The notes beneath the pieces were generated by a model. That model was not told where the DNA came from, did not search any database, and saw only the letters and a list, made by a program, of their open reading frames with translations. A stretch of 64,000 bases of DNA, from assembly GCA_000934665.2 (NCBI GenBank), contig JYFJ02000128.1, positions 1 to 64,000 of the forward strand. The letters are read 5' to 3'. This document shows positions 4,620 through 48,400 of the stretch, one piece after another (the stretch's first letter is position 1; each line of letters opens with the position of its first letter). Origin of the DNA: Catajapyx aquilonaris (taxonomy: Eukaryota). The translations under genes were made by a program, and so were the position numbers.

Positions 4620-4783
4620 TGAAAACTAAGTTAAGCATGGCCATTGGACTGTGTACACATGGAGCATAGCTACCTCTGCCACATGTGTAATGTTAGAAGT
4701 CAAGTCCCATTTCAAAATGAATATATTGTACATCACTGGTACTTAATTTTCCATAGTAGATTGTGTTTGCCTGCCTGCTCTGG

Positions 4784-21400: not shown

Positions 21401-24400
21401 GGATCGCATTCATTGGAGTGCCCGTTGCAGAAGCAGGTCTTGCACAGGCCCAGGTACACTCCCTCAGTTGACCTGGTGTAACCAGCGTCACAATCCTCAC
21501 AGCTTAGTCCTTTGTAACCAGATGGACATGCACATTGCTCCACAGCATATGCACGTGACTGCCCTGTGTTGCGTTCTGAGGCAGTGTCCATGTACACCTG
21601 GCTGATTGCAGCCTCTTGTGTGTTTGTGGTGTAGGTGGCCTTGATCAGAATGGAGTCGAGATCAGCCAAGGCCATCAGGAAGTGAGCTCTGTCTGCAGGC
21701 TGCCCATCTTGACGCTGCCAATGCTGCTCAAAGAATGGGACTTCCACGGTTTGGGCACGGTTTGGTGGGATTTGCTCACGACTGAAGTATAGCAGCTGAA
21801 TGTCATTGCCCTGAAAGTAAATTTTCCTTGTTGAACATGTGTCTTCACATAATTTCATTTCAATAAGCAACAAAAAAGTCCACATACACTAATTTCTACA
21901 TCTGGAGCATTGTTCCTGGAGCTCTGTCCCCCTGGGGTTGGTACGTATCTCACAGTGTAGTTCATGTATCCACCATAGCATGTGACCTTGTCACCCAAAA
22001 ATCGGGCAGGCAACCGCCAGTAGTAGACATCTGACCTTATTCTGTTGAAGTCACGGAACACAAGTTCCCTACTGCCTGAATTTATGGTAAGCCCGTCAGA
22101 TATGGCATCACTCTGGAACTGGTCTACGATGGTGAAGTCAGGCTGCCCAGTTGTAAAGACGGCATATTCCTGCAATATTGAATTACAGAAATTAAGTTCC
22201 TACTGATTCACAGAATATGACACATTTCATGCCGTGTATATCAGAAGTGGCCAGATATTGCCCTGACAATAATGTTGCTTATCCTGTACTAACACACCTG
22301 TTGCCTGTACATGGCGGAGCTGGAACACTGATTGGTTATTCCCATACAAAAGCAGGGCAGGCATCCGTACTGATTCTTTTCATTCAGGTAGAAAGTGTTG
22401 AGCTGGCATTGGTTGCAAGTTGATCCAACCGTGTAATCCTGCAAAAAAAGGTGCAACTTTTTCATGACCAGTTCTGGCAACGAAGGGATGAAATTCCCTG
22501 CAATGTATAGGTACTCACCACCATTAGAGAAAGCATAAGGAGAGATAAGTTGAGAGGTGTAGTTATAAGCAAGAATATGTTTGTCATATCTTACCTTGCA
22601 CTGGCACTGACCAGTTGCTGGGTTAGGCAATGGGGACAGACTGCCAGCCACATCACACGATCCCTCTGAAATGGAATCACACATGGATAAAACATAATAA
22701 TTTTTACTCATTACCTCGACAAGTGTCTGACGCCCAAAAAAATGCAGATGTGTCCTACCATCTGCTAACTGTCATCAAAATATTCACAGTACTATGTGAG
22801 ATTTTTTTTGCCACTGATAATGAACAAGAAAAATTGACATTTGCTGCAAATTCAGATTTTAAACTTGAAACAAATAGCAACATATGCTCTACTGAAATCT
22901 AATAAGGATAATTGTGATGATGGAGTAATTAGTAAATAATGGGTACTGACGTGGGATGCAGTCATAAGGCCACTGTGGATTCTGCGTGTACCCAGCGTCA
23001 CATTCATTACACTGACGCCCTCTGTACCCACTCCTGCAGTTGCAGGTGACTCTTCCATCAGTGTCTTTGTAGCAACCCACTCCAAATCTGGAAATACGTA
23101 ATAATCAGTACCAGCTGCTTCACCCTTACCCAAATGTAACACAGTGTACTACTTACTGCCTGGGAGCATCAGTGTCTGGACAAGGACAGGGACGGCATTG
23201 TCCTCCATCGCTGTAGTGCCCAGAGGGACAAGTTGGTGACACCTCCTTCTCACAGCGACCCAGCCACAGGTTTGATGGGACTCGGTTAAACCCATGAGCG
23301 CAGTCCTAAAAAAAGCAACATGAATATTGCTTTCAAACTTAATTACTCATCAAAATGTTGCTAGGGCTTGAGTGTGTGTGGCCCACGAATGCAAAAGCAC
23401 ATTAGGCTATATGTCAATTGTATCATGCTAATGCTTTACATTTTAATTTTAAGGCATGCTACAGTGGCGTAAACTGCAGAAAACAGTTTGTATGACAGCA
23501 GGGAGTTTTAAAAGCTACACTGGAACAAAACTTTCCATTGATGTTTTAAAAATGTGAACAGTAGTGCCTTACCTCACAGGACAGTCCAGTGTATCCCTCT
23601 GGACAACGACATTTCTCCACAAACACAGTCTGGCCTTGACCTGTGTCTGGCAGCACTCCAGTATCCATGCGCAGGTTGGTCAATGATGTGTCGACTGTTG
23701 GTCCCTCCAAGTACTGTGCCCTGTAAATAACAAAGGTCAATGCTTTGTCCAGTTCCCACTGATAATAACCTACAAACCTGATGAGAAGGTTGTCCAAATT
23801 CTCCAGTGCCATCATGATTTCTTCTCTGGAAGCCACCTCTTCCCCAATGACAGCAATATCTCCTCCTGGTCTCCCTCCGAGTGCCTTGTACCATTCTCCA
23901 TACCTGAATTGTGCCTCCACCTCATTTTCACGACCTGCTTGTACTGATCCACGTGGTATATGGAACAATGTCACACCATTGCCCTGGAATAATAATATGT
24001 GCGTGAAAGATAGATGAAGCAATATTCATGAAAACTTTGAATATTTTGTGTCCAATTTTTTACGTCAAATGGGGAAGTAGCCTTCATTTTGGAAACTACA
24101 TAATAAATTCGCCCATATTTTTGGGATTTTTTTGGCATATTCCATTTTAAGATATCAGTTTCAGTTCCGGAGTAATTGGGGTTTTTATGTAGGGAAATGG
24201 TGATGTCACTGTTTCCCTAGAAAATGTTGACGTCACGCGAAGTGAAATGAACGCAAAAATGGTGTTATAGAACGCGCCCCGTCATTGTCGTAAAATGCTT
24301 CGCTGTTGTTAGCAACCATCCCATTCCGTGAGCAAGATAGCGGCCGGGGCGCGTATTTATTCCAGGCCGCTCAAACTGCTTTGTACATGGCAGTGATGCC

Positions 24401-27400
24401 ACCAGGTCGGAAATATCTCTCTCCCGAATTCGGCACACGAAGGCCCCCTTTCTCCACCTCGATGGCCTACAGCGGCCGTGCGAATGCTTTCCGTCGCGTC
24501 CGCGGTTAATTCAAAGTCAAATTCCTCATATCTCGCAGTCAACCAGGCATTTCAGTGTACCCTTTCGATTGGCACCACCCGGCCGCCCCGTTTTTCCCGC
24601 CAATTTTGAAGGCACTTTCAAATGTGCCGTAATTTATCCAGTAATGTCATTTTGATGCAACAGAGTGATGGAATGTATGTTTACAGGCCTGGGCTAGCTA
24701 GTCATGAACAAAAATCCCAAATCCCACACCAAGGCTACTTCCCCATTATGGCATAAAGTCTCCTACTTACAGTCATGATGATGTCTGGTCCTCTCACAGG
24801 TCTGGCACTCCCCTGGAAGCGTATATTGTACTTGAGCCACCCACCATATGAGGCCAGTTGGTTGCCGAGATGCGACTGGGGCAGCCCAAAGAACACTTGC
24901 GATCCTGGCGCGCTTCCCAATTGCCTGCTGTCTTGCAAGTAAAGCTGAGCTCCTCCGAATCTGGACTGCAGGTAGGAACTAGGAAGTGGATTAACCTGGA
25001 CTGAACGTCCACCAGCACCATCATTCACACCAAAGATCCTAAGTTGCTCAGCAGGTGGGGACGGAAGCTGTGAGAACAAGAAGAACCAATTAGTACAAGT
25101 ATAATGTTTGAATACAATGACATTAATTACGAAAAGAAACGTGTGTGTTTCATCACATGAATACATTGCAGGCAAAAGCTTGTTAAATTATTATTTTTCC
25201 TTCGTGTGTTTAAAATGCACCTGAACTGACTGATGTTTTTCTTTCCTTTGAACTATACAGGCTTTCAGGATATAAATCATCTCAGACCTGTGAGGTGAAG
25301 AAATCAGCACTGTGGCATTCAGTGGCAATTCCAAAGCAGAAGCAGTTGAGGCACTCTCGCTGAGTTGCTGCAGCATCATTGAAGTAGCCAGAACGACACA
25401 CACCCTCAGGCCGTTTCACGGTCACAATTGCGTCAGGTACAGCAAAGGTGGCTCCCAGGTTGTTGATGGCTTCACAGCTGTAAGCACCCTGGTCAGCAAG
25501 CTGGGCATCAGTGCATGTTAAAGTCCCATAGCCATCCACACTGGTTGTTGTACACTTTGGAGGGATGTGCCCCCAGTTGAGGCGCCAGACTATCTCTGGT
25601 GTGGGAACCCCCACAGCTCGGCAGGATATAGTGAAAGTCTCTCCAATGTTCACCATTATCATAGGTGCAGGTGGAGTATGGATGGTTGGAGCAGCTGTAA
25701 ATTGAAACAATAGCCGGTTAGAGCAATTAATGCACTGACTAGTTTCAGATTAGTTCCTGAAATACCGGTACTGTATTAAAATCTCATTTGAGAGAGATTA
25801 ATATATTAATATGCAATTTATCGTAAAACTATTGTGTAGGAATGCCACGGGATATCTCCCTTGACATACTATAACAGTGAGGTCAATGTCTATAAATACA
25901 GTACCACATGAGAGAATCAAATACATACCACATCGCAGTTCATCACTTCGGTCTTGGCAATCAATTTCTCGATCACAGTGGAATGACTTCGGGATGCATT
26001 GGTTACCGTTAGCACATTGGAATTCATTGAAGCGGCATGGTGAACCTTGAATGAACAATCAGGAAACATTAGGAAGTGTAGACATATCTCATATTAATGA
26101 CATACGAAAATGTGCCTATCTGCCGACCTGCATGAGCCCTGTATTTGTGGCAAAAAAATAAAGTGTAAAGACTTTCTGAACGCCCCTCATATTAATATAT
26201 TTACCTGGAACAGGTGTGCCACAATCACGCTCATCAGAATTGTCACCACAGTCATTGTCTGAATCGCATCTCCATGTCTTGGGAACGCAACGGCGGTTGT
26301 CACACTGGAATTCATTGGGCTCACACGTATCTCCTGCAAATTAACATTAGGAAATGCATTAAAACGAACATCCCAAACATCAACTGCACCCATGTGTAGA
26401 GGTAATACTTACTGCATCTGAACTCATCCGACCCATCAGAGCAATCTGGTTTGTTGTCGCAAAGAAGCTCTTTCCGAACACATTCTCCGTTCATGCAAGT
26501 TGCCTCGTGTGGTGCGCAAGCTGGTATAGGAGGTGCGGGAGGTATCACGACTGAAAAATGCAACGCAAATGTTACACATGTGCATAGACCACAAGATATA
26601 TGCTATGCCTCTACCACATATAATATGACCATGTAATACAAACTCACCATTATTACCAAGTTAGCAAAAAGGACAGAAAAACGTGAATTTTTACCATTAG
26701 AATTTCAGATGCCTTGTGAAATTATACTCACATCTTTCCACCTGCAGAAAGACAGTGACCTGGGAACCTGGAGTTGTGGGAGCGTATCCTACTGCCTCGC
26801 ACACATAGCTGCCAGTGTGCTCCAACTTGATGTCTGGCATCTCGAGGCGTCCATTGATGTCCCGAGAGCCTGGAGGAAGTGGGAGGCCACCACTTCTGGT
26901 CCATCTAACTGGTGCCCGAATGAGGCCTTCATCTCTGCACTGGAACACTACTTCATAGCCTGCCAAATGCATAAGCAGCATTAGTTCACACGTCTGTGCC
27001 CAAAACTGAGTTAGTAAATCCCACCTGCTGCATATCTCACAACTGTTAGCAGGGTGAAGGAACAACAAAAAGGATTATTCATGGTTAAAAAAACATCACA
27101 CAAGTGGCCAAGACTCAATTATTACCAAATGTATATTCTTCCCCTACTTTTAATCTTTGATTGACTTTCTTGCACCTAATAACAGATGTCTAATGATCAG
27201 ATACGCAAGATTTCCCGTGCACTAATTTACGACTTTTTAAATTAATTTATTTAAATTAACAATCTTCACTAGCTTACCTTCTTTGCTGGTCTGCTCAGAT
27301 GGGTACGTCTTCAAATTGAGGTCAGCCTCTGCAAAAAATTAACTCTATTAGGTTTCATAATTTAGGTGCAACTCCTGCAGTTTAGTTCCTTTAGTAACTC

Positions 27401-30400
27401 AAGTGATGGAAGAAATTAACTGTAGTTGATTAAATTTCTACTCTACTATTAGGTTGATGTACTGTACCAAGTAGTAGTAGTTATCCCCTGTAAAATAAAA
27501 AATGGGAGGGCAGTTCCTTTTAAGTAATAAGAAAAATACAATGGTCTGTTATACATTTTCCATTTAAAACTTGACAGAAATTGGAAGAAGGATTAGCTCG
27601 GCCAACGATGAATTAGTTACAACAGACAAGACACAATCACACGGTATGCTCTGTAGTGTGATGCCTACTGAAAGTGGATTGGATGCTGGAAATAAAATTA
27701 AATCAGAAGAGAAATAAACCAAAATGAAACACAACCCTGGTTTTATGTGTTTGATGCTCATTCATGCCACTCGTTAAAAAAAAATTCAGCTCACACTTTC
27801 ATCTGGAACCTTTACCCACACACTCACACTTACGATGACAGTCTAACTCGTCACTCGTGTCGTAAGGGCAGTCAACCCGCCCATTGCAGCGTAAGCGCCG
27901 GTCTATGCAGGGCCCATTTTCACAACGAAACTGCCAATACTCACACCTAGACTGATCTAAAGACAAAGGTCTCAGTTAAGCTTAGTGGGAGGGTCTGCTG
28001 TGGTAGATGGCTCGTAAGGGAGAAGTGGGAGGGTACCTGAAACAAGATGGCATGCCCCCAAAAACATGGGATACTTACGGCAATTCCTCTCATCCGAGTA
28101 GTCCGAGCAGTCGTATTTCCCGTCACACACCAGGGAGCTGGAGATGCACTGTCTGGTGCTGCCACATGCAAATTCGCCAGGGAGACAGTCCACTGAAGCT
28201 GTGAAATTTAAAAATAACAAATCGATTACAGATCTCACATGGCCTTGCTATTAATGTATACTAATTCATCATTGAGTCAAATTCAACACTTACGGCATGC
28301 TAGCTCGTCACTTCCATCAGGACAGTTGGGAGACCTGTCACACCTCTGAGCCAGTGGGATGCACTGCCCGTTGTTGCAACGGAATTCATTTGCATGGCAA
28401 TCTGAAAAATTCCAATGCTATTATCAAAAAATTCCTCACTGCAGTTTGAGCAAGTGCCAAAGTATTGCAGGCAAGAAGCAGAGAGCGAAGATGCGAGACA
28501 TGACTGTAGCAGGTGCTGTTGCTATAATAAAAATGTGCCATCATCCATACACACTCTCACGCAAATGTCACCAGTCACGCACATTACACATTCATGCCAT
28601 TGGAGTAGAGAGCAGGGTATACAAACAGTTCAAGTCAGGGTCGAGGCAATTCTGTTCGTCCGAGAAATCTTCACAATCATAGAAATTATCGCACTGGAGG
28701 TGCTTGTCTATACACTGCCCGTCCGCACATGTATATTCGTTGGGGAGGCAATTCCCTGCCTCGCCTAGCAAGGACAGTTTTAAGGAAGAAAAAAAAAGAG
28801 AAAGAGAGAGAAAGAGATAGAGAAGGGTTAGGATATGTTACAAAGGAAGGCAAAGAAAGATGCAAACACACATGTTAGTGGGCAACTGCAGATGGTCAAG
28901 GGAGAAGTACATACCGCAATCTCGTTCGTCAGAGTAATCATGGCAGTCATAACGCCTGTCACATCGTTGAGACTGAGGAATGCAGCGGCCATCATCACAC
29001 CGGAATTCAGCCGACGTGCACACAGCTGTGAGACACACACAAGTCCATAAGCCATGTTACATTGGTTGCCCAAATAAAATGGTACTCATCAGCACAAAAT
29101 ATATTACAAATTACAAAGCATTCAAGTCAGAGGAGGACCTCAAGAAAATGTTCATTATTTAACCAAAAACCTGTGTCGGAGTTGATGGCTGTAGCAATAG
29201 TAAAAATAGTAGCAATAGTAGCTAAAAAATGCATTTTGTGTATTTCTCGAAATCATGTCCCCAATAAATTACATATTATTGAGTCATGAGAACTTTTAAC
29301 ACTGACATTTCTTGCTTAAACCAAGCAAAAATATTGTGATACTTCACAGATATTTTTTATTTGAATAACTGTGACTCTTGCGGTGATCACCTGCATTTTT
29401 GGTGACTTTTGGTGTTGTACCCTCATTTCGTAGCCACAGCTCCATTAATCTCTGGGAGCTGGTGCCGGATTCTGTATATTGTTAGTTTCTTGAGGTGTAA
29501 CCAACTATTCAGTTCCCATTTTATGAGTCCAAACCACTTTGCTAATTACAGGTTTCCTACTGTTCACCTGCCTTTGCAATGGGAGAGCCTTTCTCTTACA
29601 GAATCAATTGATCCCACCCCTTGGCAAGCTAAGGGATCCTCTCCCTGTGGTTTCACCACATAACTAAGTTTCCCTTAATGCACAGGAGGTAATACTTACG
29701 TGGAGGTGTAAATGGACAATCAATTTCATCAGAGCCATCCCTGCACTCAGAACGGCCATTGCAGCGGCTTGAGTACGGAATGCAATCTCCACTGCGGCAG
29801 GTGAAATCCGCAGACGAGCAGGTTGGCTCTAGAGAAGGAGTTCATTTATCATGCAATTGAAGACCAAGTGACATATTTCTAAAGAGGTCTACACATGGGA
29901 AGTTGAAGTTTTAGCCCATTATCCATTAATATGTGTGGGCTCTCTGTCCTTCATCCTGAAGTGACCTGCACCAAACTAGTGCTAACACCACCCATACGAA
30001 GACCCCTTTAGCATTTGTTACAAAACACCACAACACATAAATCTGAAAACAAACGCACCACACTCCTTTTCATCTGAATTGTCATGGCAGTCTTTGTAAC
30101 CATCACAGCGGTACGAAGATGAGATGCACGTTCCGTCAAGGCATTTGAATTGGTCAATTCGACATGCTGAGGAGGGAACAAACAGCAAACAATGGCAAAC
30201 TCTACAAACTAAGAAGTCATACCCACACCCAAACTCACAGCCTCATGAAACTCAATGTTTCCCTAATTAAAATGGTAACTAATCAAGTTTCTACCACACC
30301 TCATAGCATCTTAACAGACTCTCGAGTAGCCCTAAACACTATGAACCCACCAAAGTGCCAATACAAATCAATTACTGCAACAATCCATGTTTCATCAAAC

Positions 30401-33400
30401 AACAAATTTCATAACTAAAGTGCAGCTAAAATACACTCCATGCAAAACAGTCTCACGTGCAAGGGAATTTAGATACTTGGGGAGGTGGGAAAAACCAGAA
30501 TTAAAAGTAGGAAATATATATTGCAGGGAAACATACGGCAGTCACGTTCATCACTACCATCCCGGCAATCTTGCCTCTTGTCACATTGCTGGAACTGCTC
30601 AATACATGTGCCATCACCACATTGGAACTGACTTGAGGAGCAGGGAGGTGGTTCTGAAGAGCAATCACACATGTCACAATGGTGCCTCACATGACATAAC
30701 ATATAAGAAACCTACGACAGTCCCGCTCATCACTGCCATCCCTACAGTCAGATCTACGGTCACATCTTTGGAATGATTCAATGCAGGAACCATCACCACA
30801 ACGAAATTGGCCAGAAGTGCATTCAGGCGGTGCTGTGCATAAGTGAAAGTAAAACATCTGGTGTAACTAGGTGCACACAAAGAGCAAGCATCGCATTTAC
30901 CCATGTGGAAGTTTAAAACCAGGTTACAACTTTGGGGCGATATTCTTATAGAGTTAGTTATGACTCAAGCCACTAGAAGGTAGTTAAACAATTAGAATTT
31001 GTGGCAATTAGTGTTTCACTTAATTTCTTTAGCAACATACTGGTAGTTCTTTTGCCTAAATATCCATGATGAGAAAACTAAACTTCTAATTCCATTCTAT
31101 AAGTACCTTAGATTTTCCTTTGTCTTTCAGATAAAATGAATGCTATAATATTGCAGGACAGGCTGCAGTTGATTATTATTCCACATCATTTCAAATTTGT
31201 TTCATTTATTCCATCAAAGAGCAAGTTATTTAATTACTTTCATTAAAGTTTTTATGCCAACCCAAGGTTGTAACAAAGTTTCACTGCACATAAATGAATA
31301 AATGCGCTAAACATTGTTTAAAGCAAACAGTGAACATACGACAATCTCGCTCATCGCTGCCATCTCTACAGTCTTGTCTACGATCACACTTTTGATATGG
31401 CTCAATGCAAGAGCCATCACCACAACGGAACTGGTGAGATGCACAATCAGGTGGTTCTGTTCAAGAAAACAAACACAAGTGCCAGGATCTAAACATGTGC
31501 AAGAAAACGGTGAAAGGAAGATGAAGACACATACGACAGTCCCGTTCGTCACTGCCATCTGGACAGTCATATTTACGGTCGCACCTTAGGAATGAGTCAA
31601 TGCAGACGCCATCATGGCAACGGAACTGATGCGAGGCACATTCAGGTGGTGCTGTGCAAGTGAACAATATTTAACAAGTGCATCCCACAAAGGTAACAAG
31701 AAACAGTAAAATACAAGGAGAACATACGACAGTCTCTTTCGTCACTGCCATCTCTACAATCAGGTCTACGGTCACACTGTTGGTACGACTCGATGCAGGT
31801 ACCATCACCACAACGGAATTGGTCGGACGTGCAAGCTATGTGTAACATAAACAAACACAACAAAGTGCAGGCACTGGACTGGTGAAGAAAATACCCTACA
31901 CACTATTGTCGGTGAAACTCAAAATGCATCATAAATTTTGCACTGTCCTATTTTCAAAAGGATCCTATGTCCCATGTTTATGAAATTTCATTTCATGCTT
32001 TGCATATATTTCTTTTTAAAAGAGATGATTACAGACATGGCTATTGCTATGCCATATTTTGCTATTTTTGTATTAAACCTGTTTCACCAACAGCATGCAA
32101 AATTATAATAAGGCAAAACATACGACAGTCCCGTTCATCACTTCCATCCCTACAATCTGGCCTTCGATCACATCGCTGACTTCGGTCAATGCAGGTGCTG
32201 TCATCGCAACGAAACTGGTTGGCAGTGCAAAGAGGTGGTGCTGTGCAAGCAAACATATAAATGGAATGTTCTAACACACATTTGCAACTAACATCAATAA
32301 ATAAGGCAGAAATAAAGTGATAAATATAAATATGCCAACAAAAAGGATGTTTTAAAAAACCCTGAGAAACGCACGGCATCCAATTTCATCGCTGCCGTCT
32401 CTGCAATCTGGTCTCCGGTCGCAACGCTGCTCAGGTTCAATGCAGCGATCACCATCACATTGGTACTGATGAGGTGCACAACCTGTAATGAAATATGTGA
32501 TTGAAGCCAAGCTACAGGTAATGATAATGATAATGAATCTTTGGTAACACACTCTTCTCATACTTGGTTCACTCTGTCAGAACTGATATTTTTCAAATAA
32601 TGATGTATTTGTAACAAAAGTACTGCTTTAATAAAATTATGATAAATGGGGAAGACATACCAATGTGAAGAAAATAAATCTTCGAGAGAATATTTTAAAA
32701 TGTATGTGACAACCGATATTTTTGCATGTTGGCAGAGTGTAAGAACCAAGTATATCAGCAAGATGCACGTGCACATATGCCAATACGCTTACGTGATGGG
32801 CAGTCGGTCTCATCTGAACCATCCTGACACTCAGGATAACCATTGCAGTGACTGTGGCCTGGGACACATTCGCCATTTCGACAGGTGAACTCAACCGAGG
32901 TACATGTGGGTTCTGCAAAAGTGCTCATGATTTGGTCCCATCTACACTTTATCCCCTTTTCTTAACAAAGTTCGTGCTTAATAGATGTACAGTACATAGA
33001 GTATTTAGAGTAGAGGCTCCAAACCCTATCCACAATGTACGGCACAGAAACGATACGAATCCAGCCCAAGGCTTCTGATAAAAATTTGCCACCACTGCCC
33101 AAAAACACATGCCCAAATCTTTGCCAAGTCCAAGCGATTCGTGGTGTACCTACCACAGTCGAGTTCGTCTGAGCCATCTGCACAGTCCCGTGTCCCGTCG
33201 CACCGTTTCCTTGCAATAATGCAAGTGCGGCCGTCCTTGCACCGGAATTCTGTGTCTAGGCACTTCTCTGCAGACAAGACGAGAAGCCACTCCCATTGCA
33301 TGCAGCACATAAATGGACGCAATGAAATGTATGGGAATTGTCAACAGGCAATTCCAGACCTTCGTACGAGTCCATGCAGTGATGAGGCATGCGTATGACT

Positions 33401-36400
33401 GAAGCAAGCAACATGTAGTACAAGCAGGTCAAGCAAGTTTATGATAACCTTCACTTGATGGAACCAAAAATTAATTGATGCAGTTATGGCGTGTGACAGT
33501 GAAATCCATTTTTAAGCAAATTGTTTAGTAGGCTACATGACTGCGTACAAAAGCTGAAAAAGACTTCTTCCAAGACAGCACGGCCACCACAATTTGACAT
33601 CTGTTCTCTGCAGAATGATGGATGGCCCAACACCAGCTGCTGACTAACTACATTCTCAACATTTTCCCAATTTGCTAATAAAAATGGATTGACCACATTT
33701 TCACGCCCATATATGCATTCAGGCATCCAGTGAAGGCCAAGCAGAGTGCAAAATCAGCATGTAACCAACCTAGGTGAACTTCCATCCTGATTTTAAGCCG
33801 TACATTCCAACCGTAATTTTTTCAAATAAAGTGCACCAAAATATTGACTTTCCAAATTGATAGATTGGAATAAAGTGGTGATATAAAAAAAAAGCCCATA
33901 GACACTTACTGATGCAGTCACTCTCATCCACTCCATCAACACAATCGTACGAACCGTCACAGCGTTTGCTCTGGGGAACACATTTTCCATCACCACAAAG
34001 AATATCTTGATACCCACAGAGGTCGGCTAAGGGAGAGGTGAAACCAAATGAAGCAAAATTTCTTTGTTGCCCAGATGGTCATTGGTCATATCAACAGGTG
34101 GTTGCAAAATAATAAAAAAAGAAATGAAATTGAAAAAGGCAAACGAACGCGAGAGTAAGCAAACACTACCGCGGTACTCAAATTATTACATGTAATTAGG
34201 GTATATAATTCGTCCGATAAACAGTCCTCAAACCAGGCGTAGTAATGTAGGCCTACTCTATTGATGTCAAAAAATTAGATAAATATATACTGGTTATATT
34301 ATATCTATCAGGAAGTGAGAGCTAAAAAAAATCCTTCCCTGAAGTCACAACTGAGGGTGGCATTCAAGGTTCCATTGCTTCAGGATACGCTTGTCTGAAC
34401 TTTTTTTTTCACTTGAGAAAATAGCACCTTTCCAAAGCCTTGAAAACTCTTCAGATGAACCAAATATGACAAGAAGTACCACACCCTCGGAGGACAATCG
34501 CACTTTTCGTTGTAATTTGTCACACACTGAGCTCTTCGTTCGTTGCCTTCTTCAACCGGGGCAGGGGGTGGGTCGCACAAAAACAAGAAGAGTGACTCTT
34601 TAAAAAAAAAACACCCTCCCTCTCCCCCAAAACAAATGGAGAAAGACAAAAAAAGAAGCGGAATGAAAGCAAATGGAACGTACGACAGTCTCGCTCGTCA
34701 CTATCGTCAGGACAGTCGGAAATGTAGTCACATCGTAGGCTTTCATCGATGCACTCTCCAGAATCACAGACAAAAGACTGCGGCGGGCATGATGTTACTG
34801 GCACAATGGAATAGCTTTTAGCCAGCAAGTAGCGCAGTGAATATACGTACAACAGCAGCAAAGAGCAGCGCTTGGTATTGCACTCAGCCACTCTTTGCCA
34901 GCAGGGGTATACACATTGTTATCTACTACTGCACAGGGGGAAATCTAGTGTATTAAAATTAGTGCTCCATTCACTTCGGAAATGAATCAATTCATCTCAA
35001 TTCACTGACTTGGCCCATTCCATTTCACTCCATTCAACTTCCACTCATTCACTTTCACCTCCATTGACTAGTCATCATGAATTGCTTAAATCTCATTCAC
35101 TATTCATCATTTACTCAATCCATTTACAATGTCGTAATAAATCATTCAGATTCTTTCACACCGCGTGAAAATACTTTAATTCACATCCCATTCTGTTCCA
35201 GTCACCACTCATTCGCTTTATTCATTCATTTCATAATTAATTTTCTACTCATTTACATTCAGCTCCAGTGAATTGGACAGCCACACATTCACTTACAGTA
35301 TGAAGTAATTCCATTCCGAATTGAACAGTGCCAGTCATTATAGTATTAATGTTACAATTATTACAGTGAGGCAGAACCAAGCTTGGTACGTACGCAACAA
35401 TATTCTACAATACAGCTCGTATCAAGAATGGGTCTGCAACAACGTCCCCACAAAATGGGTGATAACATGCATTTGCCTACAGGGCATGCTCAACCGCTTC
35501 ATTGACTGGTGGATATTGGATTCAAAACGCTTTTTTGACCATTTGGTGGCAATATTCCCCCACCTCTCCCGTGGCTCCCGTTTCACAAACACCATCAAGC
35601 GGCCTAGCGATGCGTATGTCGTGGTCGCAATGGGGGTGGCCGCACCATGGACCAGGTCCGCCACTGTGACGCAAGAAGCGAAACAGATGCAGATTGATGC
35701 AATCTATACAGAAAAATTGTGCGAGGAATGTGCACACTTGTCATCATTCATGTATGGAATTTACCGGTACTTCCAAGTTTGGATCAAAGAGTGTTGAATG
35801 CAATAGTGGTGCTTGTGCAACGGGTGCACTTCACGCCCAGTCGCGGAAACGGCCGGACATTTTTTCAAAAGCTTAAAAAAAACAGCAAAGAGTGGACACA
35901 TACGGCAGTTAAGCTCGTCAGCCCCGTCGTCGCAATCCTTTTTCCCATCGCACTTGAGGGCAGGGGCCACGCACGTACCATTCTTACACTGCACGTCAGT
36001 AGCAGCGCAGGTGGTTGCTGAGCATAGCAGAGGCAACAAACATAAGGTCAAGTACAAGCACATACACACACCACATTAAAAGCAATAGGGATGGGCTGCA
36101 TAGTGATCGTACTTCTATGCAGTTATTGGGCAATAGAAAAGTGCCATTGACATAGCCCAAGCTGACCATCAATACTGTATCTGTATATCGACAGCTTCAC
36201 TCCGAACCCACATCACAAACCGATAATGGAAATCCTGATCCTGACCATAGCCAGGGACAGGTGAGTGATCACGTTGCATTCAACTCGTTTTGTGTACAAA
36301 AGCCGTCAGGGTGGGCATCAAATTATTCTAGCTATATGAACCGACTTGATCACGTTTGATGTGGGCTGCTTATCATCACCGCGCACACACACGCCATATC

Positions 36401-39400
36401 CAATGCATCCCCATGTCGCATCGGCAGTTTGACCAATTTTCAACTTTTGCAAAATTTGCCCAGTGGAGGACCCCCCAAGCAGCGCACATGCAGAGTCAAA
36501 CCACAGGCTTCAGGCAACAATGCTGAAGCCAAAAGCTCGATTTGTCCCCAACTGTTTCATCCTACCTTCACACCCTCTTTCGTCCGAACCATCAGGGCAG
36601 TCGGTTCTGTTATCGCATTTTTGGCGGTAAGGAATGCACGTGCTCCCATCCCCACACTCTATCTGCCACCAGACACATCCGCCACCATCTACCAACATCA
36701 TCATCATCAGTGTGGTCATGCCCATGCTAAACGTTATGCTGGCCGGCACACACATGAAACGTCTAAAAACCCTCCACGGATTTCAACCCACTGGGTTTCG
36801 GCTTGTTGGTGATTCACAAAACGGAACGGAGATGGATCGCTATAGGGTGAAACGCCTTGTTAGCTGCCCGGTCCACGGTGGTCAACCGCACAGGTTCACA
36901 CACTGAACAAGGTGCTAAACCCGTACTATTCAAAATTCATGCACTCATTTTAGTCTGCCTCGGGGCAAACACAAAAAAGCGAGTTAGCTACTTGTAAATT
37001 ATTGAACATGCTAATTGCGGCTGTAACGCGTTAATACAGTTACGCCTGTAGTGTCTAGGGGTGTGTTTGCGAAAATTAAATTGCAAAGTCTGGTTATTGG
37101 GTGTGTGGCTACCATTTACCCATCCGGGCCCCACTTGTTTTCAGATGTGGCTTGATTTCCACATAATGCAAGATTATCTTCATGCACACACTCAAAAAAA
37201 CGGCTAATTTCATCTGTTCCCCATGATTATGCAAATGCACTTGCGGGGGACGCGGTAATCTATTCGGTGCGTGCTTCAGCTTGCCGCCTTATATTGCATC
37301 ACTTCACTCGTATGGACGACGTTCATTTGCGCGCGAAAACATACCAACCCCTTGAGGTAATCGAGCTGCAGTAATTCAACTCAGTATACTTAACAAAAGG
37401 GCAATTGAAAATAAAAGTACACATGCTTTCGTCGAAAAAAATAAATGGTGTAGGATCAGGATATGTGGAGTTGTTGGAGGATACATACGGCAATCCCTTT
37501 CGTCGCCTCCGTCGGCACAGTCAGGGTTACTGTCGCACACTCGTCTGACGTCGATGCAGGTACCGTCATAGCATTGAAACTCCAGGCTGCTACACCTTGC
37601 TGTATGGTTAGGGGTTAGGGTAGGAAAAAAAATGACAAAATAAATGATACGCAAATATAAAAACAAATCCGAGTGGAGTAAGCAGTTGGCTCATTGGCTA
37701 AAACGCTCCATCGACGTATTTAGCCAATCAAATTAGCAGAAAGCCAGTTGCAACACGATTTCGATTTTCCTGCAACTTGGTTTTTTGGGGGGCTTCAGGT
37801 GAAAGCCTCCAAGTGCTTCTAGGAATTTAATTGCCTCTAACGGCGCCTCTGCTTCGAGTTAGTCCCACCAAAAACTAACCAACTGCTTTTCCCCACGATC
37901 GGTTCAACCAAACCGAAATAAAGGAACCCAAAAGCACAGAACGCATAAGAAAAACGACACTCGCACAAGAACGAATCACACATTAAACTTCACTGTCACG
38001 TGTACTTCCAGCAGACAAACAAATGGACGTAAAAAAATAAGCCTGAAAACGACACAACAGAACAAGTTTTTTGGGGGTTTTCGAAGAGAGAATAATACCC
38101 ATATACCCAGCATACGGCTTAGGAGAAGACAGTAGTTTGGATAGGGATATCACTCTATCTCACGCAGACGACGAAACGAGCTCATCGATTCCACTGAAAC
38201 GGACCATTTGGGCATCTTAACACACATCTCTCTCGCCCGTTTCCAGCGCCATCAGGGATGCGGGCTTCTTCTGTGCCCTTAACCCCTCCCCTTGTTTATT
38301 CCCAGGAAATCCTTTAAGTTTGATGAGACTATCAAGTTCTCCTTGCCGTAGAAAATAGTTAGGAGGACGACACCATAGTAGGGACCAAGATTTTGGCGAT
38401 AGGGATGTACTCGTACCGGGTACGCCAATCATACATTCGCAATTTTTTGTGTCCGGTATCTGCACAGCCCCTATGTGTTAGATGGCATGTTTGGTGGGAT
38501 GAATGTATGTAAATGTGCAATGAAAGGGTATGGAAAAAATGTTGGAAGCAAAATTAGTTTCAGTAAAATGCAAGAGAACATAAAACAGGTTATGGAAAAA
38601 AATAGGCAATAGCAAGGCAGGGTTGGTACCTAAAAACAAGCCAAAAAGCTGCAGAATATCCCCAGACATGGCATGAAGATTCCATTTGGATTTTTATCTA
38701 ACCGGCGGAGGATATACGTACAGCATCCTAGTTCATCCTCGCCATTTGGGCACTCCTTATGACCGTTACATCGTTGGCCAATGTTCAAACAAGATTTGTC
38801 ATCACACTCGAATTGATCCGAGCGACAACCTACTGGTGCTGCAAAGAAAATACTAGTAGCAAAAAAAATGTGGTGGGGGTTTGGGGGGGGGGGGGGGGAN
38901 GGGGGGGGGGAAAGGAGATAACGTCTTCACTTTGCATCCAAAACGGATCCAAAATATGGAGGCTTTTGCAAAAGTTGCTCTACTTTCAAAATGCGACGCA
39001 AAGTAACGCATCAAAATATGTTTCAGTAACTTGGAGAGCCAACTTTCACAAGTTCTCTAATAGCATCCTTATAGACTCCTTACTTGCATAATTTTCGATC
39101 TAGTTAAGAACTAGTGCTGGAATAAATTTACATGGCTAAAATTCTCGCCTGACCTGGATAAAACGCACTTGTAATCCCTTTTCAGCCCTCATAAAATTTT
39201 TGCAAATGGTCTCGCAAATCTTAATCACGTGGTCGTAACGACCATTCATTAGTCGATCACATAACTCATCGGGGTCCATAAATCGCTGTGGTGTGTACCA
39301 GAATGTAAGGACACTCACCGTCCCTTCAATAACAGCTCGTTGAACCATTAAAACCTGTTTTTTTTCACGCATCAATGTTTTAAAGCCTGCAGCGTGTACC

Positions 39401-42400
39401 CTGCTAATTGACTCTAATTCTGCTAAAAGCGGTAGTAAATCATTTACATGTAACAGTAATAAGCTGCTAATGTACCAAGCCTAACTGTTGCACTGTTTTG
39501 ACACCTCGGCCTAAAATATTGGATCCACTTTGATGCTGTGACAGACAGATAGCAGAAAAATAGGAACAAAAGCAAAATAATAATAAAAAAACAGTAAACT
39601 ATAATAAAACTAATAATACATGCCAATAGGTAGGAGTCATGCAACTTTTTTTGTTTAAAAAGTGTAAATTGTGTTATCATGCAACAATCCCAGTCCACAG
39701 TCCAGGATGTCCTTTCTTTAAAAAAAAATAAAAAATCCTTCCACCAAATTTTGTCTGAAAAAGTAGGAAGGTTGGGTTGCAAATACTAACCACAGTCCTT
39801 TTCGTCAGAGCCATCCGTGCAATCATCACGTCCGTTGCACTTCAAGTCCTCCCGAATACATGTTCGGTCTCCGCATTGAAACTCATTCCGTGCACATGAA
39901 GCTTCAAAATGAAAATGGGAGGTAAGGAAAAAAATGGGTTTGGCTCGTCATGAGAATGAGTTTGTGTACTGGAGATGATGGTTGGTCTACTGTGCTTACA
40001 AATAATAAATGGGGACTTGCCACACTCGGGGTATATGTATTAATGAAACCCAATTTTTAATACTTAGGTGACTTCAAAAAGGGGACGGCATTAATTATTC
40101 CTTGGTGTGATGCATGTGTGGATGTGAAACTGCTAAAAAATTGCTACCATTAGGGATGAACGGCCTCTCCCTCTAAGTGTATTGCAAGCGTACTGCTGTA
40201 TACACAATATTAATGAATCAATATTTAATACAACTTCCGTGTAGGCCTGTGTGCCTGGTTAAATTGGAGTGGATCCTCTTGCCACTATTCGCCTTCAGGT
40301 GTAAGTGTAACAAACTGCCAATATCTGGCAGCCCCTGATGATGCAAAATGGAGTTTCGCACATTTGTCAGGACAAAAAATATATGAACTTTTCCCCCCTT
40401 CTCTATAGGTTATGCGCAGAGGTAAAAAGAAAATAGCAAAATCCCTGAGCTTCCATAAATTTTCGCTGGACTTTTGGCGCGGCTGACAATGGACACGTAA
40501 GCGCCGACACGAAACCGTTTCTTTTCAAATGGGTACTCACGACAATTCCGTTCGTCGCTTCCGTCCTGGCAGTCCCTAGTTCCGTCGCATTTTCTCCTCA
40601 GGTTGATGCAGAATCCGTTGTCGCACTGGAACTGGGTCCGTTCATTGCAAGCTTGAAAAACAGGCATTAGTTAATATTAAGCGACATACACAGCCCAGTT
40701 GTATGAACACAAATGGATAAAAATTATTCTGGCGATATTAATCATGTCGCCATTGCCAAAATGAGGGGGGAAAAACCTTGCGAACCACCACATGGGAAGG
40801 AAACGTGCACTGTACCTGTCTCCTAAGTACTCCCAAAATTTCATGCATTTTGTAGCTAATGAACTGATCCGATAAATTATATCATTAATGATCTGACACG
40901 TGTTGATTAGAGTCTTCTGAGAGGGATTATTCGTTTCAGGAATACACACACCGCAAGGCATATAACCAGGTTATGGATAGGAAACTCACGACACTTGAAC
41001 TCGTCGGATCCATCTCTGCAATCGTCGTATTCGTTGCAACGAAGGTTGTCCGGGATGCATGTGCCGTCGGTGCACCTGAATTCGTCGCTGCGGCATTCGG
41101 GCGCTGCTGTTGAAAGGTCATCAACATGAACAAAACGCATTGCAATATGTGGGTCACAGTAACCCACGTGCCGGATGCAAATATTACGAGGTGTGTGTAA
41201 CTCATTCAGTCATGCACTCATGCCATATATATGTGGACAACACAGTGCACACGGACAATACATCTACACGTACGAATGTGCTGACAACACCACTTCAAGG
41301 GGGGACATGTTCCCCACACTTACAAAACAGAACAGATAAAAGTAAGTGAAACGTAAAACAAAGCGACACCCACAAAAAAAAAGTACGTGCTCAAACTGTC
41401 AAACGCCACTTGAGCACAGCAAGGTTACGACTCAACAAAAGGTAGCACATAAAAGTATTTCTGCAATATGGGGAGACCATAGCCCGGTCGAACAATTGAT
41501 CAAGCGTGTACAAATTGAATTCGCTTAATATGTAATTAAATTATTTTGGACAAACAGCCAAATAATTTAGAAAATAATGCCGCATCAGTCGCTACGTATC
41601 AAAGTTGCATAATTGCATTTTAAAAAGAGCCTTATTACAAGAGCAACAATTTCTGTTGAAATTGACGTATTCCTCTCGTTCCAGATTTGTTACCCATCTC
41701 CCGCATTTTTATGATCCTGCCATTATTATTTTCAGGTCATACCCTCGCTGGTTGATGGCCATTGAGGTCCGATCTAACAGCTGCCGTTCATAACTGGGGA
41801 ATAGCTGGCAGCAAACATTTGGTGGCGGGACGGAGAAAAAAAAATCAGGCGTTATCTTCATCCCAAAAGTGTTAAAGTCGCTCTAGGAATATATGAAGAT
41901 ACGAGCAGCCTGCGTAAAATGTCACTTTTTATGGCCCATCCCGACGGATGATTTCAAAAAAAGGGAGGGGTGGTGAGAGAGAGAAAATTAATTCTTATCT
42001 AGAACCGCCTCAGGGCGTTTGGTCACCAGGAATAGGACAAAAATCGAACTCTTCATCGCCGATCTCAGACGATAAGGGAGCGATTTCCACCCACATCAAC
42101 TCCACCCAACCATCATAAAAACATAATCTCTGGATTAGAACCCTCAAAATTGAATCCAGACGTCTGCATGTCGTCTCCAAATCCAAAAGAGATAGGACCT
42201 TTTTTTAAAAAAACATCACATCGCCACCTTGCTCTAACGACTGGGCAACACGTGGAGTCAATCACGCCATGTTGAGCATATGCCATCAACTGGTTATGAG
42301 CTATTAGAGAAAGTATTTAGCACTTTGTTATCGACAATTTGACCAAAGAATAATAATTTAAAACCCTCCACAAATTTTCGATTTGAATTCTAAATTGCAA

Positions 42401-45400
42401 GCCATCATCTTTCACGACCCGCCAGAAAAATGCGGCTGCCGAAAAAGAAATGAACCATTCCTCACCTTGCCCTGATTACATACATTTTGCTCAGATCATT
42501 GAACATCTCTCTCCCTCCCAGTTCTTTTTTTTTCGGTTCTACTCTCTCTTCCACAGCGAGAGTCCTGAGCTTATATAGGAGTCTGGAATGAAATGGTATG
42601 AGGTTGGAATGGGTATAAAGGGAAGGAGCGAATTCAGCGTTGACCTCCACAAATCCTCCACTTGGAGGATCCGACCCCGGCTGCACTTCATCAACCAGAT
42701 CCCACGTCTTCGACAGGGAAATATAAAAGCCTTCTTTGGACCCCAGGCCAACTTTGTCAAATGTTCTCGCTCAGGTTTTTGTGGGGGTGCCCCCCCTCCC
42801 CTCCACCCTCCCCCGCCCCGGAGAAACGAGGGAAGAGGAGATAAGCTTGTAAGTGAAGTCTGATCGATCCAACAGGAAGGATGTTCGACTAAATCGCGCT
42901 GATAATCATTCTCTAATTCCAACTCCAGCCTCCCCACCTTCCACCCAAGATTTTGGAAACTGCTTTAGGCAGGGTCTCTTAATGTCTTCAACATCACTAG
43001 TTGATAACCGCGATTAAAAATTTATGGCTTAAAAGTTGGGAATGAATTGTCATTGCCACCAATATTCAGCAAAAAAAATGACAAAATTGTAGGGAATGCA
43101 AAGTTGACACAATTTGAGGTAAAATTCACACCAAATTTTTAACTATCGTATCGCAAATTTCTGGCTGGATAAGTAGTACAATTAACTGGCAGAATAAATT
43201 TTGCTCTCTGAATAGTAGCCTACCCACTGGCGCTAAATAAGCACAAATATTCTTATTAGCTGCTCGTCATGCAAATTACCCTCCATCCCCCTTGTTATTG
43301 ACGAGTTCAAATCCTTCTACAGTATTTATCATCCGCTGGTAGATATATTTTTTGAGGGTCACTCAGCCAGTAGAAATGACTATTTGCATATTCCCCACGC
43401 TGTTCCAAATTAGGCTCCGGATATGAATGTACTCCACTATATCAATATCAGGACCGGGGGTGTACGCTAACATAATTTACAGTTGACTAAGTGAATCTTT
43501 CATAAGCACATGTAGCAAAACCTCTCTCCTCACCCACTGAAATTTCCCTTCTGCTCCATCACCACGTTACAGCCAAACCCCCCTCGAAAACATTTTCATC
43601 CCACCAGGGGGTGCTCCTATACCCCCCCCCCCCNCTCTCTCGATATAACCACCCCCTGAATCTACCACGGAACAGACTCGATAAATAAACGCATGCAGTG
43701 TATGACAGCAATAACCTCGGCCTCGCTATTTTGTCTCCATGTGATACCCGTTCGTATATACCAGTGTCGCCTCGTAAAATTAATTCCGAGAGCATAAATC
43801 ATCTCTCGTGTTGTAAAAAAAAATACACCCCCCCATTCCCTTGAATGTAAATGGAAAAGGAATTTTGTAGAGAAGATTGAAGCTATTTGGAAATGGGTGT
43901 GAAAATTTCCATCTCATGAAAGGTAGAAGGCACCTATTTCCTTGAGAGAAGTTGCATAGGAACACTTTGAACTGAACGGGAAGGGTGTAGTGAATATAAA
44001 AAAACACACACACAAGGTAGGTAGTTTGTGTGGATGTAGATTTTGCCCTGGGGTGTGCTTTGGTAATCCTGGAACCCTGGGCTTCTCGTCTCATTTCAAG
44101 CTCGGCCATATACAGAGACTAAGACACTTGCCTAAAACCTCAACTTTTCACTCCGAGAGTTTCCATGGCCCAGATACCTGCTCCATTCATGCTTTCCGTC
44201 CCAATTATATGGGAGCCAGGGAAAAAGCTATTGATCCCTCAGGCTGCCAAACTTTCAAAATCCTGAAGAGGACTTGCCTTTGGTTGCAAAGGGTTAAATT
44301 AGAAGAGGAGGGGGATTTTTCATCATTAGACCTCCCTTCGCGAGGGCACACAGGAGGAGGCCAGGAATTTTAAAATTAGAGGGTGGTCAGCGGTACAGGG
44401 TTTTCTATAATCTACAAAGCACGTCTTCATCTTCAAGGGTATCACCAAAAGAGTGGTCTCTTAATCTTCCAGGAAACTCTTTTAAAGACTGAATCAAGGT
44501 GTTTGCATATGGTTGAGGTATTTTGCATATAAAGGATTCGATTCATTAAGAGTTACACTTCAGAAAGTCGTTATACTTCACGGAACAATGCCTTTTGTGG
44601 TGTAACATTTTTCTTATGCACGTTTTATTACTGGTAAGATCCTTAACTCGAGCATTAGCAATAAATATTCCTGAAATTATAATGGCGGTTTGGATATATG
44701 GCAAGTACTACAGCGACGTGATTACTTTATAATGGCCGTGGTGCACTTACAGGTTGTATGAAATTTTAATTGCCTATATGACTGAGCGTCTATTACTGCA
44801 TTCCAAAAGTTTCGTTAGGCAGTAATTTTTTATATGTCCGACTAAATTCAACATAGCCATATCATGGCGCATAAAGGACAAAACTTATTCGTATTTTTAA
44901 ACATGTTTGCGAATTTAAAACGTGACTCAATTCACAATAACACACATCACAGGGCAACAGTTTGAAATTGCGATAATAACCTGTGATGTGCTTGATTGAT
45001 TGGCTTTTTAATAGCGCAAAAGCAACAAAGGCATCGCCAGAAACTACGACATGTCCCATAAAAATCATTCCAATTACCTGTGGCGATCGTACGTCCTCGA
45101 TGAATCAGGACCACACACAGGTCATTTTAGTTTTAAGCGCCAGATTAGGTACAGTTTTAGAAGCATCACAATATGACTTTAATGCATAAAAATACCGTGT
45201 TTATGTAATGAAGCTTCTTGTGTGGGATTCAAACACGCTGGGGACCAACACACACAAATTAGTTATACATCCGAGGATTTCCCTCAAGCTAAGCTCTGAT
45301 TACCCTGCTATGTTCTTTATAAATTCCTCTCTGGTTGCAAGCACATAACAATAGGGATCCCAGCCTGCACTCTTAATAAAAGGTACAATACATTTTTAAT

Positions 45401-48400
45401 GCTACAGGGCATGTTCCTCGCCTGAATGAAAGCTGAACATAATTAAAACTTGTATAGCTACAGTCCAGCGGATATTACTGATTTTTTTTAAAAAAAAGTT
45501 ACCTGCCATGTACGAGCACATTCTTCGAAAATCCATAACTCCTTCCTATATCTCTAGTTATACCGTGTGTAAACTTAGCATCGGCATGCCTTCCTGCCTC
45601 TCACCACAAAAATGACCTCGACCTCAGGTCTCTAATGACAGAGGTAACTCGACACTTCGATGTTAATGCTACACCTCTCAATTTACATGGCCACAAAGTA
45701 ATTGTTGGAACATTGACTGTGGTGAATGGAGTCCTTTATAGTTCGATCTAGGAAGCAGCTGCGGGACCGCAGTAATTGTAATGGCAGGGCTTGCGCCCCG
45801 TGACATTGGACCCATTTACATGAGTATTACCATAAGTATGAGCGGCCTCCACCCGTTTTACTGCGGTATTAGCGTGCAATATTTTCCCTGCTCGCGCCAG
45901 TTTTATTTTCATGCCTCCGGACAAACACACTAGATTTTCCGCTTTACTGTTTTAAATTTTTTTCCCCCCTACTCTACAAATGTGCATCTACTTGCAGGAA
46001 ATAATTAGGCTGAGGGACGAACGCCATTAAGCGGCCGATACAATGACGTCTTCCCGGGGCAGCCATTGGGTCTGCAGTTATTTCCGCCACATTAAACCCG
46101 GCTGTGAAAACCCCTTGGCAGCATCAGCAGACCGCAGTGACTCCCCTAGTGACCCTATCCTGACACATCTCCTGAGCCTTTAATGTGCGGCGGGGACCCT
46201 TTGTCGAAAGACCTTCCGCCCGGCAATTTCAATGCTCAGAGAAGAGATGAAAAGAACCAGCAGCTTCTGGACCACTGGACGTTAGAATGACCCTTCGCAA
46301 GCCAACTTTACGCTGATGTGGGTGGAAGGACCTCCACTTCATACCAATCGAATTTGACCCATCGATTCACAGGGGGCTATTACTGATTACATGAAAGAAG
46401 GTCTGGAGCAAGTCGACCGTTCTAATATTTCCAAAGCTGAAATATGAAAAACCTTCTTTAATTTTTTGAGTATAACGCCCTATAACCAATGACAGCCGAC
46501 TGTTATTTCCAACCCTAACCCATCCAGCCAATCCCAACCTCTGACCTTGGCCCACTTCAGTCCTCTACGGGGTTGGAACTAATGAAAAAAACAAACAGCT
46601 TGTTAATGGCCAGTCCCACCGGGTTCAGTTCATCCGTGGAATCCCATTTGGCCGATCAAACGCAACAGGTCACCTACTTTTTCAATCATTCACTCTTTAT
46701 GCAAAACTCGACTAGTATATGTGCACTAGTCAGAGCATTAATTAACATTCTTGAAGGCGATACAAAAAGAAGGGCCTTCGTCACGACTACAGCAGCCAAA
46801 GCAGCTGGAAATAATTTGGGTCCTCTCAACCAGGAATCGATGTGGGACTCATTATGAAACTGAGACCGTTGAGTCCTCTCTCTGTGTGTCCCCTCCCCAA
46901 CTCTACCCCCCTTCGACCGCCTATTCCAGGCCTAATGGACAAAATTATCCGAATTAATTAACTCCCACGCCCAGTTGCAGGGCGTGATTGAAGCTGGGAC
47001 CCGCCATTTTCGGGTCCACCGAGCGCCGCATGGTCAACCCAAATAGGTGGAAAAATCGTCCGGGGAAAGTGCCAAGCTTAACTCACTAGCACATGGGTGC
47101 CACACACAAAACGAGCTAACAAAAACCGGCGGGTTGGGGGGACAATAAACAAACCGAACACAAATCAGGCAATTTTCAGGGTAGGTACAGACCAACAACA
47201 ATAAAAAAAGAGAAAAAGCGTGACTATTAATTTGCGCGGATGTTGGGTTCGAATTATTTCGAACTAACCCTCTGATTACATTGCGGCCAGTTTGTGATGC
47301 CTGAATGCATGAGTACTGGAGGGACTATCTGACAAGTGTTGTCACACGCTGAGTGAGTACAAAATAAGTCAGACCTATTGATCCAGGAAAATTTTGCATA
47401 TTGTTGTTGGCTTTGCAGGAAACTTCTAATCATTCCTGGATGTTTCTATTGACTTAAATCAGGCTATTTGTATGACCCTTTTATTTCGAGGGGTGGTATA
47501 GGGAGGGCGAACTTTGCATTTTAATGCATATTCAGGGGACTCATAGGCAAGTCAAAGGTTTTCCATTTTAATTGGTAATTTTTTTTAGGGATGGAAAAAA
47601 ATTCCGAATAGTGGTTCATTTTTTTCATCGTGGCAGGTTTTATTCCGCCAAACATGGCAACTGGAATCAGAGGGTTAAATGCATACCATTCCAAACGGAC
47701 GGGTTTTCGAGCACACACACTTACGGCAATTAGCCTCATCCTCTCCACTGACACAGTCCATAATATAATCACAACGGCGGAACTGTTCCACACAACGTCC
47801 ATCATTGCATTGAAACTCATGAGGTCCACAAGAAGGCGGCTCTGCACAAACATGAACAGTTTCAATACCCAACACTGAAGCTAATTCTGGCATTCGCACT
47901 TGTGTTTAACAATCGTGTCAATCTGGCATTGTTATAGTCCATTTTGTCATCCAATAAGTTGTGACTAAACGACATCAGCAATACGTCCTAAGGGACACCA
48001 TGCTAACAGTACCGGTAGTGAAGACATTATCTTAGTTATTTATTCTTCCATGCTTTAAAACGTAACCAATTAAATATTATCACCACTGAGGTTGTGGCAA
48101 TGTTGTGCTGAGGTTCTGATGTTCATTCCCCCATGAAAATGAACACTGTGTAATCCAGTCGACTCCGGATGCATTTTGCCGGCGTATCTCTCCCACCATC
48201 AGCATATTGGCAACAATTTGGGACAGGACAGTTTTCGCAACCCTGCAGCCCTCCCACAGCCGTTACACTTTAGAGACAAGAGTGTCCCAATTTCGATACT
48301 TTTCCACCCTACTTCTTCTTCTTTGCTTTTCTTTTTTATCCTTCACCCCCACAAGCGACAAAGATGTTTCGCATCGAGCCCACTTGAGTGGTACAACTTC

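Follow-up and report, generated by a model that had tools for sequence, protein, structure and literature searches.

Layout of the LDLa exon array

The 64,000-nucleotide (nt) stretch of the Catajapyx aquilonaris genome analysed here (positions 1 to 64,000 of contig JYFJ02000128.1, assembly GCA_000934665.2; referred to as the window) carries on its minus strand a perlecan/Trol gene with a long array of exons that encode LDLa (LDL class A) modules. The array extends from 47841 to 27834 and consists of 26 exons with exactly one module per exon. Borders were placed where an AG precedes and a GT follows the module, using the sole frame that keeps it open. In the resulting border table, all 26 exons are 108-129 nt long, a multiple of 3, in phase 1-1 and flanked by AG and GT. 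This agrees for 26/26 exons with the original prediction, which had described one-module exons of this kind with the outer borders 47841 and 27834. With every length a multiple of 3 and every exon in phase 1-1, the predicted potential for skipping any subset of exons in frame is real.

Exon 1 (47725..47841, 117 nt) has a CAG acceptor and a GTAAGT donor and is followed by the first array intron (41104-47724, minus strand), which at 6621 nt is ten times the median of the other introns. Exon 2 (40990..41103, 114 nt) starts behind a tandem CAGCAG acceptor at 41106/41103. Exons 3 (40541..40651, 111 nt) and 4 (39791..39901, 111 nt) both use an AAG acceptor, the latter together with a GTTAGT donor, and exon 5 (38722..38838, 117 nt) offers three in-frame AGs at 38838/38832/38829. 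After exon 6 (37489..37599, 111 nt) follows exon 7 (36566..36688, 123 nt), whose pyrimidine tract (6/16) is the poorest of the array, and then exons 8 (35904..36017, 114 nt), 9 (34684..34797, 114 nt), 10 (33910..34026, 117 nt), 11 (33154..33267, 114 nt), 12 (32793..32912, 120 nt; module 62% identical to module 21) and 13 (32375..32482, 108 nt), the last with a GTGCGT donor that matches the consensus at 4/8 positions. A subfamily of similar modules is encoded by exons 14 (32124..32240, 117 nt), 15 (31728..31835, 108 nt), 16 (31535..31651, 117 nt; introns of 76 and 78 nt on either side), 17 (31340..31456, 117 nt), 18 (30716..30832, 117 nt; downstream intron of 62 nt) and 19 (30537..30653, 117 nt). 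The array continues with exons 20 (30059..30166, 108 nt; GTGCGT donor), 21 (29700..29828, 129 nt), 22 (28915..29025, 111 nt), 23 (28627..28755, 129 nt; GTTTGT donor with 4/8 matches, pyrimidine tract 8/16, second in-frame AG at 28764), 24 (28294..28401, 108 nt) and 25 (28079..28198, 120 nt; second in-frame CAG at 28192), and it ends with exon 26 (27834..27956, 123 nt). Between the array and the final three LDLa modules lie a 51-nt exon (27278..27328), which encodes the start of an Ig domain as its first strand, and a 228-nt Ig exon (26732..26959). LDLa exons 27-29 (26550 or 26520..26413; 26333..26205; 26045..25929) encode a conserved trio. The 51-nt exon had been named in the original prediction and was found as described. 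Both Ig exons and exons 27-29 are also in phase 1-1, in line with the earlier caution that symmetric phase is normal and no proof of alternative splicing.

A scan for the cysteine pattern returned 31 matches, among them 26 LDLa-like modules at 47830-27838 and three more at 26518-25930, all on the minus strand. The other two (9620-9513 and 8756-8643) are EGF-like and were rejected as LDLa modules. All six array open reading frames (ORFs) tested against Pfam matched PF00057 (Ldl_recept_a) with 36.7-44.9 bits at a cut-off of 24.1 (E 5e-9 to 1e-11), and the remaining 20 array modules were checked with a hidden Markov model (HMM) built from the window's own modules instead of Pfam. When the whole window was searched in six frames with this HMM, 59 matches were obtained. 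The 29 modules scored 44-61 bits; since the other 30 matches reached at most 6.7 bits, the 64-kb window contains no extra, hidden or decayed LDLa modules in this search, and the same HMM found no LDLa remnant in the 6621-nt first intron. The predicted total of 29 LDLa modules, including the three downstream ones, is thus confirmed, and all are intact. The calcium-binding cluster of an LDLa module comprises D/N after Cys4, an acidic residue before Cys5, D after Cys5 and DE before Cys6. Six cysteines are present in 29/29 modules and the full acidic cluster in 27/29, the exceptions being module 1, which has S at one position, and module 26, in which a one-residue insertion displaces the D.

Two further observations concern the array introns. 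The first intron carries long ORFs without a Pfam match, for example 42542-42964, and mobile-element debris is a possibility there. The sole two N bases of the window, at 38900 and 43634, each lie within a G/C homopolymer run in an array intron and probably mark uncertain homopolymer lengths in the assembly.

Identity of the gene

The gene that carries the array is a perlecan/Trol orthologue of the arthropod type, closest to the insect proteins. Its 416-amino-acid LamG exon matches perlecan proteins with E values down to 1e-227, and the best identities of six large exons, 52-69%, were to cockroach, stick-insect, bee and mayfly proteins. These matches point to an arthropod and probably to a hexapod; the species' own protein was not among the proteins searched. 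Pfam searches with the downstream exons returned Ig, Laminin_B, EGF_laminin, Laminin_G and EGF domains. The tick protein 'terribly reduced optic lobes' (Trol) aligned colinearly in tblastn, beginning in the LDLa region and extending as far as residue 4755 of 4773, with the end of the match near 7701. Protein matches, Pfam domains and colinearity with tick Trol all bear out the perlecan/Trol relationship that had been suggested before.

On the minus strand, the order 3′ of the array is the 51-nt and 228-nt Ig exons, three LDLa exons, Ig, laminin B/laminin-EGF, a run of Ig and LamG/EGF. LDLa modules followed by an Ig domain represent domain II. The rest of the gene (7701..25749) is colinear with tick Trol residues ~1750-4755 and contains the other domains in sequence. 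For domain III, Pfam detected Laminin_B (E 6e-25) and EGF_laminin on the exon at 21196-21888, in a region that tblastn places at tick residues ~1750-2915. Domain IV is represented by Ig-type ORFs from 18679 to 10577, with tblastn matches to tick residues ~3050-3970, and domain V by Laminin_G and EGF on two exons (Pfam) and a third LamG region at 8535-7954 (tblastn). No SEA domain or domain I was found in the window; according to a review, the Drosophila and C. elegans perlecans are without domain I (PMC6266596). An exact 38-nt exon word gave no match in metagenome contigs, and a search of sequencing runs with positions 27800-37799 returned no RNA run.

Comparison with other perlecans

Array size and module order were compared with 18 perlecan proteins from ticks, horseshoe crab, shrimp, centipede, priapulid, scallop and nine insects. 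The arrangement of N LDLa modules, a gap of 102-148 amino acids that holds an Ig domain, and exactly three LDLa modules was observed in 18/18 of these relatives. N ranges from 10 to 48 and is 26 here. Cimex has 10 modules before the Ig domain, bee, cockroach, beetle and mayfly have 18-22, the centipede 26, ticks 27-30, the horseshoe crab 44 and shrimp 44-48; Pfam module counts followed the same trend. An array of 26+3 modules lies within this range, and its size is an ordinary, not an exceptional, feature of an arthropod perlecan.

Modules 27-29 are the reciprocal best matches of the final trio in most relatives. Within the array, 11/13 reciprocal best module pairs with the cockroach are colinear, and no clear one-to-one orthology of array modules was seen with tick, shrimp, mayfly, scallop, bee, mosquito, stick insect, damselfly, beetle or centipede. 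Colinearity with the cockroach, and less of it elsewhere, indicates that the array is in part an old scaffold and in part lineage-specific. The centipede Strigamia has 2+24 modules before the Ig domain and then three, equal to the window, but the order is not colinear (6/11 reciprocal pairs). The equal count looks coincidental.

Modules 14-19 share 62-85% amino acid identity. Modules 13 and 22 are more distant members, the latter with 62-71% identity to modules 14-19, and the remaining module pairs are mostly 35-60% identical. According to the repeat finder, similarity between modules ends ~10 nt beyond the exons, and the introns do not align. Across 28 subfamily pairs, the mean nonsynonymous difference (pN) was 0.20 and the mean synonymous difference (pS) 0.88, so that synonymous differences are saturated; the ratio was 0.04-0.12 in those pairs where it could be computed. 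Saturated pS together with low pN means that even the most similar exons are old duplicates under purifying selection. All modules have remained intact under purifying selection, with pN/pS measured in the similar subfamily, and it is likely, judging from these sequences, that every module is translated at least sometimes.

Isoforms in relatives

In five arthropods (a bug, a butterfly, a tick, a mayfly and a shrimp), the RefSeq isoforms are distinguished by the presence or absence of entire LDLa modules, and the variable blocks carry 6, 12 or about 24 cysteines. Such whole-module differences were found among the 8 isoforms of Cimex and the 8 isoforms of Pieris. In Rhipicephalus microplus (18 isoforms), the LDLa region accounts for 14/15 variable blocks, and the number of isoforms with a given block ranges from 1 to 17. 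Cloeon has 4 isoforms, with LDLa in 3/3 variable blocks, and Penaeus has 14 isoforms with 33 variable blocks. In-frame cassette use of LDLa exons is thus already annotated in other arthropods, and by analogy these isoform sets may serve as leads to, not as proof of, module skipping. In the tick and in the shrimp perlecans, a separate subfamily of near-identical LDLa modules has been amplified, and many of the RefSeq-variable blocks belong to it. Variable blocks in these young repeats could reflect either real cassette use or a modelling artefact across the repeats.

In the literature searched, no description of LDLa exon skipping in an arthropod perlecan was found, nor a statement of a phase 1-1 rule for LDL class A exons under that wording. 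Drosophila trol is described as a gene of ~75 kb that has as many as 58 exons and gives rise to 22 polypeptides (PMC4321038). Patthy argues that module exons of symmetric phase are easily skipped, and the same note associates skipping with short exons, weak sites and long introns on either side (PMC6335736).

Splice sites and intronic sequences

The 26 array acceptors comprise 19 CAG, 5 TAG and 2 AAG. Donors are 6 GTAAGT, 1 GTAAGC, 8 GTATGT, 2 GTGAGT, 3 GTAGGN, 2 GTACGT, 2 GTGCGT, 1 GTTAGT and 1 GTTTGT. The weak sites that had been pointed out earlier are all present, namely the AAG acceptors at 39901 and 40651, the GTGCGT donors of the exons ending at 32375 and 30059, the GTTTGT donor at 28627, the GTTAGT donor at 39791 and the tandem acceptor at 41103/41106. 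Ranked only among the array exons themselves, the weakest sites would make exons 3, 4, 7, 13 and 23 the best candidates for skipping: exons 3 and 4 because of their AAG acceptors, exon 7 because of its pyrimidine tract, exon 13 because of its GTGCGT donor, and exon 23 because a GTTTGT donor is combined with a tract of 8/16. Exons 15-19, which lie between introns of 62-78 nt, are probably the least likely to be skipped. Beyond 41103/41106, tandem in-frame acceptor AGs spaced 3-9 nt apart occur on the minus strand at 38829-38838, 28192-28198, 28755-28764 and 26330-26333. These four further tandem acceptors could add or remove 1-3 residues of linker.

The original prediction had also proposed a search for intronic docking/selector base pairing, and no such architecture was detected beyond chance. 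The repeat finder returned no intronic repeat family, as every direct-repeat family with at least six copies lies within exons. Inverted repeats occur as one isolated pair each, with 72-94% complementarity, and share no common arm except an A/T-rich stretch. Pairing was assessed with exact Watson-Crick words against mononucleotide shuffles, a test that weak or G-U-rich pairings could escape, and one-to-many complementarity of intronic words of 9, 11 and 12 nt was at the level of the shuffles. Any word of 9-10 nt has its complement in at most 3/27 introns, compared with 1-3 in shuffles. One A/T-rich 10-mer has complements in 3/27 introns, compared with a maximum of 2 in 20 shuffles.

Neighbouring sequences

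An ORF on the plus strand (2957-3373) matches positions 207-269 of the 515-position Pfam profile COesterase (carboxylesterase family; E 2.6e-8). It belongs, as a fragment or an exon, to an esterase-like gene that neighbours perlecan on the downstream side. Minus-strand ORFs at 665-1601 are charged and coiled-coil-like, and Pro/Thr-rich minus-strand ORFs at 7055-7605 lie directly past the last perlecan match; neither group has a Pfam match. They could represent a neighbouring gene and the 3′ untranslated region, respectively, or low-complexity sequence.

Discussion

We interpret the region as domain II of an arthropod perlecan/Trol gene with 26 intact phase 1-1 LDLa exons, a subset of which are probably used as simple independent cassettes; we assign this interpretation a probability of roughly 0.6. 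The placement of each calcium-binding module of ~40 residues in its own phase 1-1 exon would be a legacy of exon duplication. By what is known of the family, the protein should contain the 26 modules, then an Ig domain and then the conserved LDLa trio, and the array may act as a multivalent ligand-binding arm. In-frame omission would be possible for any exon. By analogy with the annotated isoforms of other arthropods, a subset of exons would probably be independent cassettes and not mutually exclusive ones. Cassette use of array exons is plausible on this analogy; a role of the array as a functional ligand-binding 'library' is speculation.

The gene resembles Drosophila Trol and other arthropod perlecans in the order of LDLa array, Ig, three LDLa, Ig, laminin B/EGF, Ig repeats and LamG/EGF, and like them it has an expanded LDLa array before the Ig domain (10-48 modules in theirs). 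Its 26 modules are above the number in the sampled insects (10-22) and below that in chelicerates and decapods (27-48), and modules 14-19 are an amplified subfamily of its own. Many annotated isoforms of arthropod perlecans differ by whole LDLa modules. Domain II of mammalian perlecan (HSPG2) similarly lies upstream of domain III and has an Ig domain after its LDLa modules. However, the window gene has 29 LDLa modules and HSPG2 has four, and no SEA/domain I was found in the window. The earlier statement of four LDLa repeats in mammalian perlecan agrees with the review, which gives four LDL receptor motifs and one Ig domain (PMC6266596). In C. elegans, splicing of the perlecan gene unc-52 is regulated, and the same review names MEC-8, SMU-1/2, HRP-2 and CCAR-1 as the regulators (PMC6266596). 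Dscam-type clusters share with the array tandem similar exons of the same phase, but differ in that no docking/selector signal was seen in the window and in that the perlecans of relatives contain many modules at a time. If exons are skipped here, they would act as independent cassettes, unlike the Dscam-type choice. The cassette exons of unc-52 do not encode LDLa modules; they specify Ig repeats of domain IV.

Several points weigh against our interpretation. Every exon border and any skipping are inferred, the borders from the DNA sequence by itself. Searches for the gene's 5′ end in the window were negative: the N-termini of ten relatives, searched for upstream of 47900 and in the 6.6-kb intron, gave a best E value of 0.11, and a strict heuristic returned 0 candidates for a signal-peptide exon, which makes this a weak null. 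With the 5′ end not located in the window, 26 is a lower bound for the number of array modules. Outside the cockroach, module order is not clearly colinear, with 6-7 of 11-12 pairs in four other species. The 'X' isoforms of relatives in RefSeq are model predictions, and near-identical repeats can be aligned in more than one way, so that some of the blocks that vary may be artefacts.

Other points favour the alternative that all 26 exons are constitutive, which would make the array a fixed-length structural and binding arm and its symmetric phase a relic of duplication. The modules are all intact and under purifying selection, and splice sites are mostly ordinary, with CAG or TAG at 24/26 acceptors and GT at 26/26 donors. 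Many array introns are very short (8/25 internal introns are 62-159 nt), which fits constitutive splicing, and a repeat search found no repeated regulatory element in the introns. None of the variable blocks (0/3) of the three Anopheles isoforms is LDLa, and the same holds for 0/8 blocks of a 15-isoform cluster that has only five LDLa modules. On the other hand, isoforms vary by entire LDLa modules in 5/7 of the sets analysed from relatives, and several exons of the array have weak sites in the form of AAG acceptors, GTTTGT, GTTAGT or GTGCGT donors, or the one poor pyrimidine tract. We regard fully constitutive inclusion as possible, though less probable than use of a subset as cassettes.

A more far-reaching proposal is a regulated combinatorial library, in which independent inclusion of cassettes leads to tissue-specific perlecan forms with differing ligand specificities. 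Tick LDLa blocks occur in 5, 6, 8, 11, 14, 15 and 16 of 18 isoforms in differing combinations, and isoform names reach X47-X48 in shrimp and tick species. Outside the subfamily, modules are only ~35-60% identical, so that forms lacking different modules would not be equivalent. Yet the isoform models are predictions, as noted above, and a reviewer's objection in PMC6335736 is that skipped exons mostly avoid protein domains. We consider such a library unlikely. It is similarly doubtful that 26 independently chosen cassettes generate hundreds or more perlecan forms whose module sets tune the capture of lipoproteins, morphogens and matrix partners in the basement membrane. Finally, a Dscam-like, mutually exclusive choice of LDLa exons through docking/selector RNA pairing is very improbable, since similar exon size, identical phase and the single 10-nt word that exceeds its shuffles are set against the missing intronic repeat family, inverted repeats that form only isolated pairs, shuffle-level complementarity at 9, 11 and 12 nt, and isoforms of relatives that hold many modules at once.

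As it stands, the array adds to the known cases of a feature that is widespread in arthropods. What is of broader interest is the gene family and not this window, given arrays of 10-48 modules and whole-module isoform differences in ticks, shrimps and insects. If the cassettes are indeed independent, they would constitute a diversity system on the matrix side that arises from plain exon skipping and is common to arthropods. Combinatorial use, if true, would add perlecan to the short list of arthropod genes with large isoform families, and the product in this case would be an extracellular matrix protein with a role in shaping morphogen gradients.

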